Shown: piece by piece, positions 9,323 to 42,634 of the stretch
Layout: every line of letters starts with the position of its first letter
Position numbering within the stretch: position 1 is the stretch's first letter
From: Candidatus Daviesbacteria bacterium RIFCSPHIGHO2_01_FULL_41_45
GTDB taxonomy: Bacteria; Patescibacteriota; Microgenomatia; Daviesbacterales; UBA10151
Assembly (NCBI GenBank): GCA_001776975.1
Contig: MFCS01000025.1
Location: 37,407-101,406 of the forward strand
Length of the DNA stretch: 64,000 nt
Reading direction: 5' to 3'
Made by a program: the position numbers and the translations under genes
Notes under the pieces: generated by a model
Database searches by the model: none
Told to the model about the DNA's origin: nothing
The model's input: the letters and a program-made list of their open reading frames with translations, nothing else

Positions 9323-9571
9323 TTATTCAGATTACTATATTTACAGAACTCTTGCAACCCCATTGTTGCTAAATTATAGGTTATGTGTTATGATTCTTTT
9401 TAGTGGATTCAGAATCCTGAGCTGTTCGTTAATTTCTCCGTTGAGTTATTTTCATTCTAGCTCCTTAAGTTTTATTCGGAGCAATCCTAATTTTAATTCT
9501 TATTGTTTCTTGTTTCACTAAATTATTCTTCTTGGTCTCGCTTTTTTGTGGGACAAGAAGACTTAAGTAAT

Positions 9572-10774
9572 ATGTACAAATATAATCGCAGTCGTAGCTA
9601 CGGATCTTCCCGACCAACTTCAGGTGGCCATTTTCAAGGCCAAAGAAGGAATAACTTCCGCATCAGGTCGCTACCTAACGATCCCAGCTTATTTATCCGA
9701 AAATCTATTCAGGGTCTAACTGCCTATGAACAGACTATCCAACACAGTTTTGCTGATTTTAACTTAACTCCAAGGCTTAAATCTAACATTACTAACAAGG
9801 GCTACACCACCCCCACCCCCATCCAAGACCAAGCTATCAACCCCATACTTGAAGGAAGAGACTTAATCGGCCTAGCCTCTACTGGAAGTGGTAAAACTGC
9901 AGCATTTTTAATTCCCTTAATTAACAATCTTTATCTCAATCAGCACCAAAAAACCTTGATTATCGTTCCTACCAGAGAACTAGCCTTACAAATCCGGGAT
10001 GAATTTAAGTGTTTTGCAGAAGGCATGAATCTTTACTCCTGCATTATTATTGGGGGGGCTAATATTAACCGACAGGTTCAAGAGATCAGAAGATCACCCC
10101 AGGTGGTAATCGCCACCCCTGGCAGACTTAAAGATTTAATTCAGCGTCACATTATTAATTTAAAAGATTACAGCAGTATTGTATTAGATGAGGTTGATTT
10201 AATGGTGGATATTGGCTTTATTAATGATATTAGATTTTTCATCTCTTTAATGCCCTCCTCCCGCCAATCATTATTTTTCTCAGCCACCATACCCTCAAAG
10301 GTTCAGGGAGTTTTACAATCATTTGTGCAAGACCCAATTACTATATCGGTCAAAAATCAGGACACCTCGGAAAACGTTGATCAAGACGTTGTTCGGGTCA
10401 CAAATCCGGCAGAAAAGGTTAGTAAACTACACGACCTGTTAGTACAAGAAGAGTTCAAAAAAGTGTTGATTTTTGGTCGGACTAAACACGGTGTTGAAAA
10501 ATTGTACCAGGAGTTAACTTTTAGAGGATTTAAGATCGGTGCTATTCATGGTAATAAATCACAAGGTCAACGTCAAAGGGCTTTGGACAGCTTTAAAAAT
10601 GATGAGATTCAAATTCTTTTGGCTACAGATGTAGCCTCGAGGGGGTTAGATATTGATAATGTCACTCATGTTATAAATTACGAGCTTCCAGAAACTTACG
10701 AAGACTATATCCATCGCATTGGCAGAACCGGACGGGCCGGTAAGATGGGTACAGCTTTGACATTTATCAGTTAA
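9572..10774 (+). CDS. DEAD-box ATP-dependent RNA helicase (DEVD variant)
   Basis: Q-motif, GSGKTAAF (motif I), PTRELA, VLDEVD (motif II), SAT, HRIGRTGRAG. The track ORF starts at 9503. The in-frame ATG at 9572 is the more plausible start. Confidence 0.9.
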   Translation: MYKYNRSRSYGSSRPTSGGHFQGQRRNNFRIRSLPNDPSLFIRKSIQGLTAYEQTIQHSFADFNLTPRLKSNITNKGYTTPTPIQDQAINPILEGRDLIGLASTGSGKTAAFLIPLINNLYLNQHQKTLIIVPTRELALQIRDEFKCFAEGMNLYSCIIIGGANINRQVQEIRRSPQVVIATPGRLKDLIQRHIINLKDYSSIVLDEVDLMVDIGFINDIRFFISLMPSSRQSLFFSATIPSKVQGVLQSFVQDPITISVKNQDTSENVDQDVVRVTNPAEKVSKLHDLLVQEEFKKVLIFGRTKHGVEKLYQELTFRGFKIGAIHGNKSQGQRQRALDSFKNDEIQILLATDVASRGLDIDNVTHVINYELPETYEDYIHRIGRTGRAGKMGTALTFIS

Positions 10775-11136: not shown

Positions 11137-11925
11137 ATGGATATACCAATTCTGGGTTTTGGAACTTGGCAACTAAAGGGCCAGGATTGTGTTGATTCAG
11201 CCTTACACGCCCTAAGGGTGGGCTACCGACATATTGATACTGCTGATAGCTATGGTAACCACCTTGAGGTAGCGCAGGCAATTAAATCCTCTGGAGTCAA
11301 ACGGGAAGATCTGTTTATTACTACCAAGGTTCCTCGTTCTCTTTTAGGGTACGACGATGTCCTATTGAGTTGTGATAGATATTTAGTTGAACTGGACATT
11401 CCGTATATTGACCTACTATTAATCCATTGGCCCAATAAAGATATCCCAATTGAAAAAACCTTAGAGGCTTTTGAGCGGTTAAAGCAACAGGAAAAGATAA
11501 AAGAGGTTGGTGTATCCAATTTTACTATCCATCATCTGGAAGATATTAAAAGCAAGAGCTTCAAGGTGGTAAATAATCAGATTGAGCTCCATCCCACTTT
11601 TAATCAGTTAGCTATTCAACAATACTGTGATCAAAATAATATTAAATTGACGGCTTATTCTCCGGTTGGCAGAGGAGTTGATTTAGAGCTAGATACCATA
11701 AGAGAGTTGGCGATGAAGCACGGTCGAACCCCCTCCCAGATTATCTTAAGATGGATCATGCAAAGAGGAATTATAGCCATCCCTAAATCCTCAAACCCCA
11801 AACATATCGAAGAGAATTTTAATACAGCTGATTTTGAGTTAACTGATGAAGAGGTAAAACTACTAAACAATATCCCCCAGGAAGAACGAATTGTAAACCC
11901 ACCCACCTCCGAATTTCATTACTAA
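11137..11925 (+). CDS. Aldo/keto reductase
   Basis: GFGTWQ and IDTADSYGN motifs of the AKR family. Confidence 0.85.
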   Translation: MDIPILGFGTWQLKGQDCVDSALHALRVGYRHIDTADSYGNHLEVAQAIKSSGVKREDLFITTKVPRSLLGYDDVLLSCDRYLVELDIPYIDLLLIHWPNKDIPIEKTLEAFERLKQQEKIKEVGVSNFTIHHLEDIKSKSFKVVNNQIELHPTFNQLAIQQYCDQNNIKLTAYSPVGRGVDLELDTIRELAMKHGRTPSQIILRWIMQRGIIAIPKSSNPKHIEENFNTADFELTDEEVKLLNNIPQEERIVNPPTSEFHY

Positions 11926-11943
11926 AGCGTAGTTATGACTAGA

Positions 11944-11970
11944 GGTAGCACAAAGAACATTTGTGCTACC
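11944..11970. terminator. Perfect 11-bp-stem hairpin between convergent genes (likely bidirectional terminator)
   Basis: ggtagcacaaa-gaaca-tttgtgctacc. No strong T-run. Confidence 0.45.
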
Positions 11971-11986
11971 CAAGAAATAATTACAC

Positions 11987-12190
11987 TTACCCCTTACCTA
12001 AGGAGTTAGCCGCAACATATACTGCTGAGGCTCCAACAGCAACATAAACCAATGTTGTCAACATTGATCCATCACCAAGTATCATGGTCACCACATTTGT
12101 ATTGGCAACTCCTACTAGTCCCCAATTCAAACCTCCAACTATTAAAAGCCAATTTGCTAATGTACCTAAACTTTTCATCTGTCTCATCAC
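11987..12190 (-). CDS. DUF378-family small membrane protein
   Basis: GGLNWGLVG motif. Confidence 0.6.
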   Translation of the reverse strand: MMRQMKSLGTLANWLLIVGGLNWGLVGVANTNVVTMILGDGSMLTTLVYVAVGASAVYVAANSLGKG

Positions 12191-12257
12191 CCCCTTTTGT
12201 TCATCATGACAAAGTATATTACAAATGTAAATATCACGATTTAGATGTTAATATAAT

Positions 12258-13313
12258 ATGGTGAGTCTATCCACTGATCCTGCCATTAAATCACAACTAG
12301 CTGAAGAAGGATTAAAGTATTTTTCTGATCAAAATGCAGGTTATTTCCGGCATAAAGTAGAAAATAAATTTATCTATTATGACCTGAGGGGCAGTAAAAT
12401 CTCTACTCCAAAAATTCTTAAAAGAATAGGTGGCCTGGCGATACCTCCAGCCTGGAGAAATGTTTGGGTATCACCTCTAGAGAACTCCCACCTTCAAGCC
12501 ACAGGAGTTGATGATAGAGATAGAAAACAGTATATCTATCATAAATCATGGACCAAAATCTGTCAGCAAAATAAATTCTCTAAAATGGTTGATTTTGGAC
12601 TATCTTTACCCAACCTCAGATCCAAAATTAAGTATGATTTGAGTGTTCCCAAATTAGATAAACGCAAGATTTTAGCAACCGTTGTCTGGCTTTTAGAAAA
12701 CACCTTTATTAGGGTTGGCAACGACGAATATTCCAAAGAAAACCATTCTTTTGGATTAACCACCCTCAGAAATAAACATGCCAATGTTGATGGTTCCAAG
12801 ATTATCTTTAGATTTATCGGTAAAAGCGGAGTAGCCCACTTAATTAAGGTTGGCCATCCCACCATCGCCAAAACTATCAGACGCTGTATTGAGCTTCCGG
12901 GTTATGAGTTGTTTCAATATATTGAAGAAGACGGCAGTAAACACACCGTTACATCTGAAGATGTAAATCATTTTTTAAAAGATGTCACTAAAGAAGATTT
13001 TACGGCCAAAGATTTTAGAACTTGGGGGGCTAGTGATATTTGCGCAGTTCACTTTTATGAAATAGGTCTCCCAGAAGATAAGCGGGGACTTCTGAAAAAT
13101 ATCCATGCTGCTGTAAAAAAAGTATCAACTCATTTAAACAATACCGCCAAGATTTGCAGAAATTATTACATTCACCCTACAGTGATTGAGACATATCAAA
13201 CAAATATCTTAGTGCCACATTTTAGTAAATTTAAAGCCTCAAAATATACTAAGAGTGGACTAAGTTGGCATGAGTATGCTTTAATTAGACTCTTGGAGAG
13301 ACATGCTGTCTAA
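12258..13313 (+). CDS. Type IB DNA topoisomerase (poxvirus/bacterial TopIB type)
   Basis: IPPAWRNVWV, GVDDRDRKQYIYH, GLTTLRNKH, FRFIGKSG, KDFRTWGAS, and the C-terminal NYYIHP with the catalytic tyrosine context. Confidence 0.85.
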   Translation: MVSLSTDPAIKSQLAEEGLKYFSDQNAGYFRHKVENKFIYYDLRGSKISTPKILKRIGGLAIPPAWRNVWVSPLENSHLQATGVDDRDRKQYIYHKSWTKICQQNKFSKMVDFGLSLPNLRSKIKYDLSVPKLDKRKILATVVWLLENTFIRVGNDEYSKENHSFGLTTLRNKHANVDGSKIIFRFIGKSGVAHLIKVGHPTIAKTIRRCIELPGYELFQYIEEDGSKHTVTSEDVNHFLKDVTKEDFTAKDFRTWGASDICAVHFYEIGLPEDKRGLLKNIHAAVKKVSTHLNNTAKICRNYYIHPTVIETYQTNILVPHFSKFKASKYTKSGLSWHEYALIRLLERHAV

Positions 13314-13716
13314 AAATATATCACTTTTTTATTTAGCCTGGATTATCTCAGTTGTTGCCACTGTTGGTAGCTTAGTGTTTAGCGAGATCCTTAAATTTCC
13401 TCCTTGTGTTTTGTGCTGGTACCAAAGAATTATACTTTATCCACTGGTATTAATTATCGCTGTCGGTATATTAAGGAAAGACAAGAATCTTCCCTATTAT
13501 GTATTACCATTATCAATCACTGGTATGGCTGTAGCTTCCTACCACAATCTATTGTATTACTCAATAATTCCAGAGAATATTGCTCCTTGTACTCTGGGCA
13601 TTTCTTGTATCAGTAAGTTTATCGAGTGGTTTGGTTTTGTTAGCATTCCGCTCTTATCGCTACTGTCATTTGCGGTCATTACCTTAATAATGATATTATC
13701 CAGAAAGTCAAAATGA
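13303..13716 (+). CDS. dsbB: Disulfide bond formation protein B (DsbB/BdbC family)
   Basis: Four transmembrane segments with Cys pairs CVLCWYQR and CTLGISC. Confidence 0.8.
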   Translation: MLSKNISLFYLAWIISVVATVGSLVFSEILKFPPCVLCWYQRIILYPLVLIIAVGILRKDKNLPYYVLPLSITGMAVASYHNLLYYSIIPENIAPCTLGISCISKFIEWFGFVSIPLLSLLSFAVITLIMILSRKSK

Positions 13717-14351
13717 GTACCGACGCTAAAATTCTTTCAGTCATAGGAATTGTCACCACATTAGTATTAGCAGGAGGGGTATTTTTATTAAACAGGTCAA
13801 TCACTACCCCCACAGCTACTATTACAACGGATAGCCCTAATTTGATCCGAAATGATAGCTATCAAACAGCCACTGGCTCAGCCAAGGTTAATTTAGTTGA
13901 GTTTGGAGACTACCAATGCCCAGCCTGTGCCAGTGCCCATCAGGTAGTAAAGTCTGTTATGACTCTTGATGTTAATTTTGTTTTTCGCCACTTCCCACTA
14001 CCCTTGCATAAAAATGCGGTTATCGCCTCCTTGGCTGCTGAAGCAGCTGGAGTCCAGGGAAAGTACTGGGAGATGCACAACTTCTTATATGAGGATCAAG
14101 CCAATTGGTCAGAGTCAAGCAACCCCAAAGAGGTTTTCTTGGGTTATGCCGGCAAGATCCAATTAGATATTGATAAGTTTAGCCAGGATATTGAAAGTCC
14201 ACAGCTTAAATCCAAGATAGAAAGAGATCGACTTGATGGAATCAGTTTGGGAATCAACGCCACCCCAACCTTTTTTATCAACGGCGAGAAACTAGCGGGG
14301 ATGCCTAACTTTACTCAGTTTAAAAACATGATTCAGGAAAAGTCCCGCTAA
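13713..14351 (+). CDS. DsbA-family thiol:disulfide oxidoreductase (membrane-anchored)
   Basis: CPAC active site in YQCPACAS, with an N-terminal transmembrane anchor. Confidence 0.85.
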   Translation: MSTDAKILSVIGIVTTLVLAGGVFLLNRSITTPTATITTDSPNLIRNDSYQTATGSAKVNLVEFGDYQCPACASAHQVVKSVMTLDVNFVFRHFPLPLHKNAVIASLAAEAAGVQGKYWEMHNFLYEDQANWSESSNPKEVFLGYAGKIQLDIDKFSQDIESPQLKSKIERDRLDGISLGINATPTFFINGEKLAGMPNFTQFKNMIQEKSR

Positions 14352-14354
14352 AAT

Positions 14355-14729
14355 ATGGAACCATCTAGGAAACCTGGCAGAATTCTTGCTTTTAAATACG
14401 CTTTTCGGGGTATCGTTTCGGCATTTATTGAAGAGCCGAACTTAAAATTTCATTTTTTTGTAGCTTTTGTAATTATACTGGCAGGGTGGTTTTTTCAGAT
14501 TAATAAACTAGAGTGGACCGCAATTATTACCATAATCGGGTTAGTCTTGACTGCAGAGCTCACCAATACCTCAATTGAGGCAGTAGTTGATTCCTTTACT
14601 AATAAGGAACATCCTGGAGCCAAATTAGCCAAAGATATCTCCGCTGGTGCTGTTTTAATTGTCTCAATAACCGCTACAACTGTTGGGATAATTATATTTT
14701 TACCCTATATTTTAGGATTACTCACTTAA
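14355..14729 (+). CDS. dgkA: Diacylglycerol/undecaprenol kinase (DgkA family)
   Basis: AELTNTSIEAVVD and AKDISAGAVL motifs, three transmembrane segments. Confidence 0.8.
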   Translation: MEPSRKPGRILAFKYAFRGIVSAFIEEPNLKFHFFVAFVIILAGWFFQINKLEWTAIITIIGLVLTAELTNTSIEAVVDSFTNKEHPGAKLAKDISAGAVLIVSITATTVGIIIFLPYILGLLT

Positions 14730-15989
14730 TATTTTTTCAAATTTAGCTGGGGATTTGAAGGGGCCAACTAGTTGCAGATTATACCGCTCAGATCTAAACA
14801 ACTCTTTGGCTATCTCTTGGATCTCCTCCAAACTTACCGCTTCTATCTGTTGTAAATATTCATCAAATGTCTCTATCTTTCTATCCAAAACAAACTCTAC
14901 TCCAAAATGGGTAGCTAAAAAATTGGTGGACTCAGACCTAAGGGCCAAGTGCCCCCGCTCCATCTCTTTGGCTTTTTGTAATTCCTCACTAGTTACCCCC
15001 TCTTTGGCTACTTTTTCTAACTCCTCTTTAATCACTCTAATTCCCTCCTCAATTTTTTCTAACTTTAATCCGGCATAAACAATAAATACCCCACTATCAA
15101 CATATGGGGCATATGCTGCCTTCACTCGGTAAGCTAAACCTCGCCTTTCTCTAATCTGTATAAATAATCTACTAGACATACCTTCCCCTAATATTGTAGA
15201 CAACAAACTGGCTGCGTATCTTTTTTTATTGTTTCTATCATAAGCCTCAACCCCAAAAACCAAACTAACCTGCTCGGTTTTTTTATAATGGATGCTGACT
15301 TTTGGTTTAGATTGTTTAACCTGTTTGTATGGTAAAAATTTAGAACGTCTGGCTTTGGGTAAATCTAGAAAATACTTTCGGGCAATATCTTCTATGTTTT
15401 TGGGGAGTTTACCAACATAAATTAAAGCCATGTTTTCCGGTGAGTAGAGGGAGTTTATATACTCCAAAAAGTCTTCCCTTTTCATACTTTTTATTGCTTT
15501 TTCTGTACCAATAACCTCCCAACCTAATGGTTGATCCCCAAACTGTAACATCTCATAAAGATCCAGAGAGTACCTGGCCGGATCATCCCTATACATTCTC
15601 ATCTCCTCTAAAATCACCCCTTTTTCTCTCTCTATTTCTTCAGCTACCATCAGTGGTTCTTTCAACATTGAGGACAAAATATCTGAGGCAGTTTCCAGGT
15701 GCTTTGCTGATGACTTAATCCAATAATAGGTAATCTCTTTGTCAGTAGCAGCGTTATTAATTGCTCCAATTGAATCAACTATCTTACTGATCTCCTCTGC
15801 TGTCGGATATTTTTTACTCCCTTTAAAAAACATGTGTTCCAAGAAATGAGAGATTCCATTTACCCTACGGGTTTCATATCTGGATCCAGCACCAACAGAG
15901 ATAAAAGTAGTTACCGAATCTAAATGTGGGAGGTCAACGGTGATCAAAGTCAGACCGTTCTTGAGTGTTTTAGTTTTATGATTAACCAT
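14718..15989 (-). CDS. M16-family zinc peptidase (insulinase-like)
   Basis: Inverted zinc motif HFLEHMFFKG (HxxEH). Confidence 0.85.
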   Translation of the reverse strand: MVNHKTKTLKNGLTLITVDLPHLDSVTTFISVGAGSRYETRRVNGISHFLEHMFFKGSKKYPTAEEISKIVDSIGAINNAATDKEITYYWIKSSAKHLETASDILSSMLKEPLMVAEEIEREKGVILEEMRMYRDDPARYSLDLYEMLQFGDQPLGWEVIGTEKAIKSMKREDFLEYINSLYSPENMALIYVGKLPKNIEDIARKYFLDLPKARRSKFLPYKQVKQSKPKVSIHYKKTEQVSLVFGVEAYDRNNKKRYAASLLSTILGEGMSSRLFIQIRERRGLAYRVKAAYAPYVDSGVFIVYAGLKLEKIEEGIRVIKEELEKVAKEGVTSEELQKAKEMERGHLALRSESTNFLATHFGVEFVLDRKIETFDEYLQQIEAVSLEEIQEIAKELFRSERYNLQLVGPFKSPAKFEKILSE

Positions 15990-40549: not shown

Positions 40550-42634
40550 TCAGTTGGATATTACCAGGTCGGGCTTTGGTTTATCCCAAGAAGCAAAATC
40601 ACATTTTGGATAGTTACTACAACCATAAAACGGCCTGCCTTTTTTAGTCCGCTTAACAATCACCTCACCATCACACTTAGAGCACTTAACGCCCACCCTT
40701 TCTTCAAAAGCTTTAGTAAATTTACAATCTGGAAAACCTGAACAGGCCAAAAATTTACCAAATTTACCAAATTTAACTATTAACTGTTTATTGCATTCAG
40801 GACAAAGTTCATCAACCGTCACTATCTCCAATTTTACCCGACTAGCTGTTTCCAGAGTTTCGTTAACTTGTTTAACAAACGGTTTATAAAACTCCTCCAT
40901 CATTGGCTGCCACTTTCTCTCTCCCTTGGCAACCTCATCCAACTTTTCCTCCATCTCAGCAGTAAATGAATAGTCAACGATATCTGGAAAGTGTTCCCCT
41001 AAAAAGTCAGCTACACTCATCCCTAGATCAGTTGGCACAAACTTCCGATCTACCCGCTCAACGTAATACCTTTCCTGAATAGTTGACAAAGTTGGAGCAT
41101 AAGTAGAGGGTCGGCCAATCCCTAGCTCCTCTAATTTTTTTATCAACGAGGCCTCAGTATATCTAGCCGGAGGTTCAGTAAAATGCTGAGAGGGAATAAG
41201 TTCTATTAGTTTTAGCTGTTGATTGGCATCCAAATTGGGCAGCGTCTTCTCCTCTTGTTGATCCTCATCCTGATCATTTTGACCATAAACTTTCAACCAT
41301 CCATCAAACTTGACTACACTACCCGTGGCCCGCAGGAGATATTCTATACTCTCTGACTTGGCAGAAACATTAACAGTAGTCACCTCTAATACCGCCTCAC
41401 TCATCTGTGACGAGACCATCCGCTTCCAAATTAAATCATAGAGTCTAAGGTGGTCTCTGGTCATACCCTCCATGATCTGTGATTCTAAACTTTTGATTGT
41501 GGCATCAGTCGGACGTATCGCCTCGTGAGCTTCCTGAGCCGATTTAGACTTAGTTTTAAATACCCGTGCCCCTGTAGGTAGGTATTTATCTCCATACTCA
41601 GCTTTAATTACCTGCCTGGCAACAGAGATAGCTATTGGTGCCAAATTAACAGAATCAGTTCTCATATAAGTAATCAGTCCATTCTCGTACAAATTTTGAG
41701 CTAACATCATAGTTTTCTTAGAGGTAAATCCTAATTTATTAGAGGCAGTTTGTTGGAGAGTTGAGGTGGTAAAAGGGGGAGACGGATATCTTTTGACCTC
41801 TTTTTTGCTTATCTCAGCAATATTATATAAGGCCTTCTCTAAAACCCTAACATGACCCTCAGCCTCAGATTTATTTTTAATCTCCAACCGCTTCCCTTTT
41901 AGTTGCACTAGATCCGCTGTAAATCTGGCTTCTTTATTTTGACTGGCTGTTTCTAACTGCGCTTCCACACTCCAATACTCCTGGGAATTGAAAGAACCAA
42001 TCCCTTTCTCTCGCTCCACAATGAGCTTTAAAGCTACTGATTGAACCCTACCAGCAGACAATCCAGATTTGACCTTCTTCCATAAAATAGGTGAGAGATT
42101 ATAACCAACTAATCTATCTAAGACTCTCCTTGCCTGTTGTGCATCAACTAGCCTCAGATCAATCCTGCGAGGATTTTGAAAAGCCTCTTTGATGGCCTCT
42201 TCTGTAATCTCATGAAAAACCACCCTCTTAATCTCCTGTTCTATCTTTTTAGCTTGGAGATTTTTTCTTTTTCCCTCGCTGTTGTGTAATAACTCAGACA
42301 AATGCCAAGATATAGCCTCTCCCTCACGATCAGGATCTGTTGCTAACCAGATCGTTTTAGCAGAAGCCATCACTTTTTTTAGTTGGTTAATCCGTTTTGA
42401 TTTATCTCTAGGAATGATGTAGTGTGGTTCAAAGTTGTGATCTACATCCACCCCAATATCAGACTTGGGCAAGTCTCTGACGTGACCCATCGAGGCCTCA
42501 ACTTGATACTGGCTACCCAAATATTTAGCCAGAGTCCTACCTTTTGTAGGTGATTCAACAACAACTAAATTCTTCATAATATAATCCTCAATTTCCCCTT
42601 TATTCACGCTAGAGTAGTGTAACAGTGATGTCAA
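40550..42634 (-). CDS. topA: DNA topoisomerase I
   Basis: Toprim VVVESPTKGRTLAKYLG, catalytic Tyr GLITYMRTDS, C-terminal C4 zinc ribbons. Confidence 0.95.
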   Translation of the reverse strand: MTSLLHYSSVNKGEIEDYIMKNLVVVESPTKGRTLAKYLGSQYQVEASMGHVRDLPKSDIGVDVDHNFEPHYIIPRDKSKRINQLKKVMASAKTIWLATDPDREGEAISWHLSELLHNSEGKRKNLQAKKIEQEIKRVVFHEITEEAIKEAFQNPRRIDLRLVDAQQARRVLDRLVGYNLSPILWKKVKSGLSAGRVQSVALKLIVEREKGIGSFNSQEYWSVEAQLETASQNKEARFTADLVQLKGKRLEIKNKSEAEGHVRVLEKALYNIAEISKKEVKRYPSPPFTTSTLQQTASNKLGFTSKKTMMLAQNLYENGLITYMRTDSVNLAPIAISVARQVIKAEYGDKYLPTGARVFKTKSKSAQEAHEAIRPTDATIKSLESQIMEGMTRDHLRLYDLIWKRMVSSQMSEAVLEVTTVNVSAKSESIEYLLRATGSVVKFDGWLKVYGQNDQDEDQQEEKTLPNLDANQQLKLIELIPSQHFTEPPARYTEASLIKKLEELGIGRPSTYAPTLSTIQERYYVERVDRKFVPTDLGMSVADFLGEHFPDIVDYSFTAEMEEKLDEVAKGERKWQPMMEEFYKPFVKQVNETLETASRVKLEIVTVDELCPECNKQLIVKFGKFGKFLACSGFPDCKFTKAFEERVGVKCSKCDGEVIVKRTKKGRPFYGCSNYPKCDFASWDKPKPDLVISN

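Follow-up and report, generated by a model that had tools for sequence, protein, structure and literature searches.

The 351-aa protein encoded at 12258-13313 (+) of the window, by which we mean the whole 64,000-nucleotide stretch of Candidatus Daviesbacteria DNA analysed here, is predicted from its open reading frame, Pfam and PDB matches and fold to be a soluble, cytoplasmic bacterial type IB DNA topoisomerase (TopIB). Taking the explanation as a whole, we consider it very likely that this is a genuine and ordinary bacterial TopIB of the poxvirus-like, short form, that the DsbB-DsbA genes following it make up a functionally coherent BdbC/BdbD-type pair that forms extracytoplasmic disulfide bonds, and that the two are juxtaposed incidentally and do not constitute a functional system. 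The kind of enzyme is already known: the bacterial TopIB family has been established since the early 2000s, is represented by crystal structures and has its own dedicated N-terminal domain in Pfam. The finding matters little in itself and its useful results are modest, among them that a gene listed in GenBank as a hypothetical protein can now be confidently named.

The original prediction of a TopIB rested on hallmark segments, and all of these (IPPAW, RDRKQYIYH, TLRNKH, FIGKSG, KDFRTWGAS and YYIHP) are found in the 351-aa translation. Two Pfam domains were assigned well above their gathering scores. The N-terminal DNA-binding domain, which includes IPPAW, spans aa 37-85 (12366-12512, +) and matches PF21338 Top1B_N_bact over the full profile, positions 1-49 (71.4 bits, gathering score 27, E=5.1e-20), while the C-terminal catalytic domain, aa 103-317 (12564-13208, +), matches PF01028 Topoisom_I over positions 9-214 of 228 (120.6 bits against 23.7, E=8.7e-35). 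A sequence search of PDB aligned aa 36-348 with the TopIB of D. radiodurans (2F4Q, E=2.9e-50). The fold pointed to the same enzyme: searched with Foldseek, an AF2 model of moderate quality (mean pLDDT 70.5, which explains its large global rmsd values) retrieved 2f4q at 1.9e-20, 3m4a at 2.4e-20 and variola TopIB at 8e-15. The protein has no hydrophobic segments (KD19 peak 0.89) and is identical to GenBank OGE25756.1, OGE35432.1 and OGE65522.1, all from Candidatus Daviesbacteria.

The predicted catalytic residues could be placed one by one on the 2F4Q alignment and with reference to published enzymes (PMC2666729). Arg152 (12711-12713, +) corresponds to R137 of D. radiodurans and R130 of vaccinia, and Lys189 (12822-12824, +) to D. 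radiodurans K174. Lys251 and Arg254, the predicted catalytic Lys and Arg of the KDFRTWG motif (KDFR, 13008-13019, +), align with K236 and R239 as counted on the alignment, a small numbering discrepancy from the Lys-235 and Arg-237 printed for these middle two residues (PMC2666729). Asn295 (13140-13142, +) replaces the His of poxviral and eukaryotic enzymes, as do N280 in D. radiodurans and N283 in P. aeruginosa, and Tyr304 (13167-13169, +), equivalent to D. radiodurans Y289, is the predicted nucleophile that would form 3'-phosphotyrosyl-DNA. This catalytic set is conserved in 80/80 GTDB loci and among 17 Microgenomates sequences; in the 82-sequence alignment made up of the 80 loci and the D. 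radiodurans and variola references, Arg152 is invariant (82/82).

By homology, the N-terminal beta-sheet domain and the catalytic domain would clamp duplex DNA, and Tyr304 would attack a phosphodiester to give the covalent 3'-phosphotyrosyl intermediate; R152, K189, K251, R254 and N295 would stabilise the transition state. The strand bearing the 5'-OH could then swivel, so that both positive and negative supercoils would be relaxed without ATP before the nick is resealed. In the cell such an enzyme would complement TopA, which removes negative supercoils only. A complete TopA is, as had been noticed earlier, also present in the window: a type IA topoisomerase I with Toprim, Topoisom_bac (E=2e-131) and Zn_ribbon_Top1 domains is encoded by topA at 40550-42634 (-).

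The genes downstream of topIB were also as originally described, namely a DsbB-like gene, a DsbA-like gene with a CPAC motif and dgkA, with profile identities well over the curated cut-offs. The first (13303-13716, +) encodes a predicted membrane thiol-disulfide oxidoreductase of 137 aa with matches to PF02600 (E=3.1e-12) and to the BdbC-type family NF002849 (129.9 bits against a cut-off of 124). It has three strong hydrophobic segments at the threshold used, a CVLC motif (C35/C38; 13405-13416, +) that falls on the CVLC of E. coli DsbB when the two are aligned, and a second cysteine pair, C96/C102 (13588-13608, +). The second (13713-14351, +) encodes a predicted BdbD/DsbA-like thioredoxin-fold oxidase of 212 aa (PF13462, E=2.4e-21; PF01323, E=3.4e-16; BdbD structure 3EU3, E=1e-10), with an N-terminal hydrophobic membrane anchor at aa 7-26 (13731-13790, +) and the CPAC active site at aa 69-72 (13917-13928, +). 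A third envelope gene, at 14355-14729 (+), closes the run on this strand; it encodes a 124-aa prokaryotic diacylglycerol/undecaprenol kinase of the dgkA type (PF01219, E=6.2e-34) and overlaps at its 3' end with a convergently oriented gene for an M16 peptidase.

The four genes are tightly packed. The stop codon of topIB (13311-13313) lies beyond the ATG of dsbB (13303), giving the overlap of stop and start that the original prediction had pointed out; it measures 11 nt (13303-13313, +), and a GGAG Shine-Dalgarno-like element lies inside topIB at 13293-13296 (+), 7-10 nt upstream of the dsbB ATG. The dsbB and dsbA genes overlap by 4 nt (ATGA), and dsbA and dgkA are separated by 3 nt. Upstream, topIB is divided from a divergent DUF378 gene (11987-12190, -) by a 67-nt intergenic region (12191-12257), the one place where a promoter for all four genes would fit. 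Because there is no intergenic space between them, topIB, dsbB, dsbA and dgkA are probably co-transcribed from this 67-nt region. A scan of 11800-15000 for promoters and terminators gave counts at chance level and bears neither way on where the operon would begin or end.

Could the four genes be a true functional operon, in which DNA relaxation and oxidative folding in the envelope are co-regulated, for example in response to oxygen or oxidative stress? The packing speaks for it, since these genes, overlapping or end to end, leave no space within the run for further promoters or terminators and the Shine-Dalgarno element of dsbB sits within topIB, and so does the persistence of the arrangement at 76-99% TopIB identity and 87% DsbB identity. 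We nevertheless regard this as very improbable for several reasons. First, packing of this kind is common here: 20 of the 44 same-strand neighbour pairs in the window (about 45%) are separated by 10 nt or less or overlap, and 11 of them do overlap. Second, the adjacency of TopIB and DsbB was seen in 0/80 GTDB loci and is absent in relatives at 64%, 64% and 62% TopIB identity. Third, DsbB homologues elsewhere in Microgenomates have unrelated neighbours, adjoining YjbQ, a holin-like gene, Pyr_excise or DUF1775 and not TopIB. Lastly, TopIB is cytoplasmic and lacks a hydrophobic segment, whereas the site of action of Dsb proteins is extracytoplasmic. A functional link between TopIB and the Dsb proteins is thus not supported. 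The suggestion that operon-like packing with Dsb genes is unusual is not supported either: the packing is physically real, but the arrangement belongs to a narrow clade and such packing is the norm in this genome. The case shows that an overlap of stop and start in compact CPR genomes should not count as evidence for a functional operon.

We bracketed the depth of the linkage using contigs encoding individual homologues, a sample that is thin and made up of short contigs between 64 and 76% TopIB identity. The TopIB-DsbB junction was found only in the loci L081 (TopIB 99% identical) and L110 (DsbB 87%) and in the P0002 contig (TopIB 76%), and L081 and L110 have the same overlap between topIB and dsbB. 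Since the junction and its 11-nt overlap are kept in at least 2-3 related species-level lineages, the arrangement has endured for a while, and the two genes may still be coupled in translation. Another locus, L082, has the order TopIB-AKR-x-DgkA with no Dsb genes, and DsbB homologues on other contigs from Microgenomates lack an adjoining DsbA. A census of neighbouring families around TopIB did not place DsbB, DSBA or thioredoxin families among the top families. Under our preferred reading the juxtaposition is incidental and specific to this lineage: genome compaction and local rearrangement would have left DsbB-DsbA lying between topIB and dgkA.

Two other links were considered and set aside. 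The cysteines C210 and C300 of TopIB, invariant within the clade, might have formed a bridge to Dsb chemistry, but nearly every bacterial TopIB keeps both regardless of its context, and this context-independent conservation, together with the cytoplasmic location of TopIB, led us to drop the idea. A link with M16 peptidases was raised by phmmer matches that recur near TopIB in four phyla, yet M16 is not directly adjacent; it is the commonest second neighbour of TopIB in the Pfam census, but at only 5/142.

The original prediction had described TopIB as sporadic and as standing out in a minimal genome. The guess of a minimal genome fits, because the organism is a Candidatus Daviesbacteria, a member of the CPR; the enzyme itself does not stand out in this lineage. 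The distribution in sister genomes and the phylogeny, both proposed as checks, point the same way. Daviesbacteria, Levybacteria, Blackburnbacteria, Woesebacteria and further Microgenomates include homologues that share 50-60% identity, and those of Microgenomates all fall into one 50%-identity cluster. In a simple neighbour-joining tree without support values, the window protein nests inside a single low-GC clade of Patescibacteria only, beside named Daviesbacteria, and is bacterial and not viral; other phyla also group by taxonomy. The clade that spans Daviesbacteria, Levybacteria, Woesebacteria and Blackburnbacteria is monophyletic in this tree, which points to vertical inheritance, and the descent of topIB within Microgenomates does appear to have been vertical. 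The family is also large, with 10,574 clusters at 50% identity and at least 597 GTDB species representatives. A scan of metagenome contigs with TopIB as a single-protein query returned only 5 loci, at 39-44% identity, and no close relatives. The annotation "DNA topoisomerase IB" is already routine, including in Daviesbacteria and Levybacteria MAGs.

Somewhat less probable again than a functional operon is a recent horizontal gain of topIB from a virus, a plasmid or another phylum. Such a gain would suit the scattered bacterial distribution of TopIB and the viral origin proposed for the bacterial enzymes (PMC2647321), as well as the many homologues on plasmids and megaplasmids (377 records, with 8 of the 10 listed annotated "DNA topoisomerase IB") and the bacterial-type TopIB of giant-virus MAGs. 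However, the position of the window protein in a Patescibacteria-only clade next to Daviesbacteria argues against it, and the possible donors are distant: viral and phage collections gave distant matches only, the best viral identity being 33-36% for giant viruses and 29% for phages, and plasmid matches do not exceed 43%. The GC content of topIB (0.366) is near that of the window (0.393), and the flanking genes are of housekeeping type, with no integrase or tRNA nearby. Local synteny (AKR, DUF378, DgkA and DEAD helicase) is common to other Microgenomates, the DEAD-helicase synteny with topIB remaining in four Microgenomates loci. The gene looks to be one that Microgenomates have kept stably and passed on vertically, not a sporadic oddity.

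We put forward a broader proposal only tentatively and think it rather unlikely as a whole: TopIB may be a vertically inherited, near-core Microgenomates enzyme, kept despite genome reduction for ATP-independent relaxation of positive supercoils, possibly offsetting fewer type II topoisomerases, with its translation coupled to that of bdbC/bdbD within one Daviesbacteria genus. We found no paper joining TopIB with CPR or Patescibacteria in a literature search using these terms. A search on Microgenomates and topoisomerase found no discussion of TopIB as a retained Microgenomates enzyme, and one on the TopIB gene neighbourhood with ATP-dependent DNA ligase found nothing specific.

That the topIB product is instead a relative of tyrosine recombinases or integrases, the alternative named with the original prediction, is barely credible: the catalytic fold is common to both groups and XerH appeared in the fold search (E ~5e-3), but the profile search gave TopIB families and no recombinase families at E≤0.01, both TopIB-specific domains, including the N-terminal one of bacterial TopIB, lie far over their cut-offs, the match to 2F4Q by sequence is joined by 33% identity to the D. 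radiodurans enzyme (3m4a) in structural alignment, and Lys251, invariant among the aligned sequences, stands where recombinases typically carry His (PMC2666729).

Among known enzymes, the D. radiodurans TopIB (2F4Q, 3M4A) is the best structural match of the window protein. It has the same two-domain architecture, a similar length (346 aa compared with 351 aa), and the identical R/K/K/R/N/Y set with Asn for the poxviral His, but only about 30-33% identity in structural alignments. The two also differ in that the window protein has C210, C300 and H306, which most other bacterial TopIBs keep and the D. radiodurans enzyme lacks, and in that the window protein comes from a CPR bacterium whose genome is small. 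The P. aeruginosa topoisomerase IB (PAT) is likewise a short-form enzyme with Asn for the catalytic His; its Tyr nucleophile was demonstrated by Y292F, and it is reported to need Mg2+ for relaxation (PMC2666729). The poxvirus enzymes, vaccinia 1A41 and variola 2H7F, have fold and predicted mechanism in common with the window protein (sequence E=1.5e-12 and 8e-10, respectively; TM-score ~0.64 between variola TopIB and the AF2 model) and conserve R, K, K, R and Y, but they carry His at the position of N295, have an N-terminal domain of another family and are only about 20% identical. The window TopIB clearly falls in the bacterial group and not the viral one. Contigs of giant-virus MAGs in IMG/VR encode bacterial-like TopIBs that match the Microgenomates alignment; since they are only 33-36% identical, the relationship is not close. 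Mimivirus TopIB is reported to group with the bacterial enzymes (PMC2647321).

The predicted DsbB-DsbA pair resembles BdbC-BdbD of B. subtilis, the DsbB-DsbA system of monoderm bacteria, in the CxxC motif and second cysteine pair of its DsbB and in its membrane-anchored DsbA partner of the CPxC type (CPAC here). In the window the dsbB and dsbA genes are adjacent and overlapping, and, unlike the B. subtilis pair, they are wedged between topIB and dgkA.

The 351-aa protein encoded by topIB (12258-13313, plus strand) matched Pfam Topoisom_I (E=8.7e-35) and PF21338, the bacterial TopIB N-terminal domain (E=5.1e-20), with no recombinase family among its Pfam matches, confirming the original prediction of a topoisomerase rather than a tyrosine recombinase. 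All peptide motifs cited in that prediction were found in the translation. In a search against solved structures, D. radiodurans TopIB (DraTopIB; PDB 2F4Q) was matched at E=2.9e-50 over approximately the whole TopIB length, and poxviral TopIB structures at 1e-12 to 1e-9. An AlphaFold2 model with 17 homologues as input was of moderate quality (mean pLDDT 70.5); Foldseek ranked DraTopIB first (about 2e-20), followed by variola and human TopIB, while the best tyrosine recombinase, XerH, reached only 5e-3. TopIB lacks a hydrophobic segment, indicating that it is cytoplasmic. The separate TopA was likewise verified as a complete type IA enzyme (40550-42634, minus strand). The identification of TopIB is right, and the protein is of an already-known kind, common in this lineage.

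The expectation that TopIB would stand out here as a sporadic oddity was not borne out, since homologues are abundant and the family is large. The exact sequence is deposited in GenBank as OGE25756.1, OGE35432.1 and OGE65522.1 from Candidatus Daviesbacteria, annotated "hypothetical protein", and is named "DNA topoisomerase" in UniRef. Homologues abound at 57-62% identity, and those that carry a name, from Candidatus Daviesbacteria or Levybacteria, are "DNA topoisomerase IB". Public annotation is poor at the neighbouring gene as well: a 99%-identical DsbB (P0272) in Candidatus Daviesbacteria RIFCSPLOWO2_02_FULL_40_8 is labelled '2-oxoglutarate dehydrogenase'. An exhaustive HMMER search over 1.84 billion 50%-identity representatives returned 10,574 clusters at E<=1e-3, of which 1,460 also reached E<=1e-30, with all Microgenomates-type TopIB sequences falling into one representative. 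Scanning the GTDB species representatives with two patterns confirmed at least 597 relatives spanning Patescibacteria, Acidobacteriota, Verrucomicrobiota, Bacteroidota, Cyanobacteria, Chloroflexota, Betaproteobacteria and others, and 377 plasmid records in PLSDB carry a homologue (among the ten records listed, eight bear the annotation "DNA topoisomerase IB"). Forterre and Gadelle called the bacterial distribution scattered in 2009 (PMC2647321); the distribution is indeed scattered, yet this is a large, well-known family. In Scytonema hyalinum (L028, 5926-7083), and possibly likewise in locus L025 (158-1230), TopIB is broken into two consecutive ORFs, which suggests a frameshift, pseudogene or assembly error.

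The proposed phylogeny was run as a neighbour-joining tree of 80 GTDB species loci with D. radiodurans and variola TopIB. The window TopIB fell inside a single clade composed only of low-GC Patescibacteria-type genomes, beside named Daviesbacteria, and the remaining phyla also clustered largely by taxonomy. Viral collections yielded only giant-virus MAG homologues at 33-36% identity and two phage matches at 29%, and the GC content of topIB (0.366, against 0.393 for the window) was unremarkable. An orthologue (E about 1e-140 to 1e-165) of the DEAD-box helicase at 9503-10774 (plus strand), which stands 1.5 kb upstream of topIB in the window, lies just downstream of topIB in L009, L010, L011 and L036, loci from Blackburnbacteria, Woesebacteria and two other Microgenomates; this residual synteny supports vertical descent. 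AKR, DUF378 and DgkA genes also recur near topIB in 64-75% relatives. Together, these observations point to vertical inheritance within Microgenomates with no recent transfer, and TopIB seems to be a stable gene of this group. No paper joining TopIB with CPR or Patescibacteria terms was found in the searched literature, nor was Microgenomates TopIB found to be treated in the four papers there that name both Microgenomates and topoisomerase.

Thirteen IMG/VR viral contigs (L097-L109), several of them giant-virus MAGs (GVMAG), encode bacterial-type TopIB at 33-36% identity, which fits the published grouping of mimivirus TopIB with bacterial enzymes (PMC2647321). Twelve TPA_asm MAGs titled 'uncultured Gammaproteobacteria bacterium' (L003, L004, L005, L007, L010, L012, L015, L020, L021, L025, L032 and L050) have a GC content of 0.32-0.43 and a TopIB inside the Patescibacteria clade, L010 also sharing the helicase synteny; the label looks like a placeholder or error.

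The predicted tight packing was borne out by the ORFs and by direct reading of the junctions. Four genes lie head-to-tail on the plus strand: topIB, a 137-aa DsbB-like gene (13303-13716), a 212-aa DsbA-like gene (13713-14351) and the 124-aa dgkA (14355-14729). Both flanking genes are on the minus strand: upstream a 67-aa DUF378 gene (11987-12190), divergent from topIB, and downstream an M16 peptidase gene (14718-15989) that converges on dgkA. The reading frame of topIB ends with a stop codon (13311-13313) within the DsbB-like ORF, whose ATG at 13303 is preceded by GGAG; the DsbB/DsbA junction is an ATGA overlap and the DsbA/dgkA junction a 3-nt gap. From this layout a single transcript very probably covers all four genes, and the start of DsbB translation may be coupled to the end of TopIB translation. 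In a consensus scan of 11800-15000, promoter and terminator signals did not exceed chance level. Within 12240-12260, a perfect TATAAT hexamer (12252-12257) adjoins the start codon of topIB, which lacks a visible upstream Shine-Dalgarno sequence; translation may begin in a non-SD or leaderless mode, and homologue alignments back the annotated start. The DsbB-like protein is of BdbC type (PF02600 match, NF002849 score above cut-off), with CVLC and a C96/C102 pair; its partner, a DsbA/BdbD-like oxidase, is membrane-anchored and carries CPAC, and dgkA encodes a prokaryotic diacylglycerol kinase. The coherent functional unit here is the DsbB-DsbA pair.

The claim that joining TopIB to Dsb genes is unusual did not hold up, as the adjacency occurs in close relatives only and tight packing is frequent in the window, where 20 of 44 same-strand neighbour pairs have gaps of <=10 nt and 11 overlap. 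A 99%-identical contig (L081) has the identical order RRM-AKR-DUF378(-)-TopIB-DsbB-DsbA-DgkA, a contig with an 87%-identical DsbB (L110) shows the same overlap and runs from the TopIB 3' end through DsbB and DsbA to DgkA, and a 76%-identical TopIB lies in the order DUF378(-)-TopIB-DsbB with a 4-nt overlap. At 62-64% TopIB identity the arrangement is gone: one 64% relative reads TopIB-AKR-x-DgkA, without the link to DsbB, another has a convergent sigma-70 gene downstream, and the 62% relative likewise differs. No DsbB or DsbA homologue lay within 6 kb of TopIB in any of the 80 GTDB loci, even at E<=0.01. When the two closest ORFs on either side of topIB in these loci were assigned to Pfam families, DsbB, DSBA and thioredoxin families were all missing from the top 25. 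The commonest direct neighbour was an ATP-dependent DNA ligase (DNA_ligase_A_M with DNA_ligase_A_C; 6/150 ORFs), which may reflect a DNA-repair association of bacterial TopIB; none adjoins topIB in the window. M16 peptidase was the commonest second neighbour (5/142 ORFs). DsbB homologues of other Microgenomates (67-73% identical) adjoin YjbQ, a holin-like gene, a Pyr_excise gene or DUF1775, with neither TopIB nor DsbA beside them. The TopIB-Dsb juxtaposition is concluded to be an accident of genome compactness at genus level.

Two further neighbourhoods were observed. M16 peptidase genes stand one or two genes from topIB in Bacteroidota (Pontibacter), Chthoniobacterales, Acidobacteriota (L026, L048, L073, L054, L077, L071 and L076 among these loci) and the window, a recurrence that may exceed chance. 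In another Microgenomates lineage (contigs L095, 5001-5734, and L096, 4684-5417), the DsbB homologue is followed, with a 4-nt overlap, by a DNA-repair gene of the Pyr_excise (T4 endonuclease V-type) family; this is a second DsbB/DNA-enzyme packing, most simply taken as a further sign of indiscriminate tight packing.

By homology, the two TopIB domains would clamp duplex DNA and Tyr304 would form a 3'-phosphotyrosyl link, helped by R152, K189, K251, R254 and N295; controlled rotation would relax positive or negative supercoils without ATP before the strand is religated. TopIB would complement TopA, whose relaxation is limited to negative supercoils. P. aeruginosa TopIB is reported to require Mg2+ (PMC2666729). 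The six catalytic residues, predicted from the 2F4Q alignment, were verified as codons in the window and are kept in all 80 related loci. By count on that alignment, the D. radiodurans counterparts of K251 and R254 are K236 and R239, printed as Lys-235 and Arg-237 in PMC2666729. Nearly all of the 80 bacterial TopIBs keep C210, C300 and H306, the latter two flanking Tyr304 on both sides; the two references with solved structures, from D. radiodurans and variola, lack them. The catalytic set itself corresponds to that listed for TopIB of D. radiodurans and P. aeruginosa, with Asn for the poxviral His (PMC2666729), here N295.
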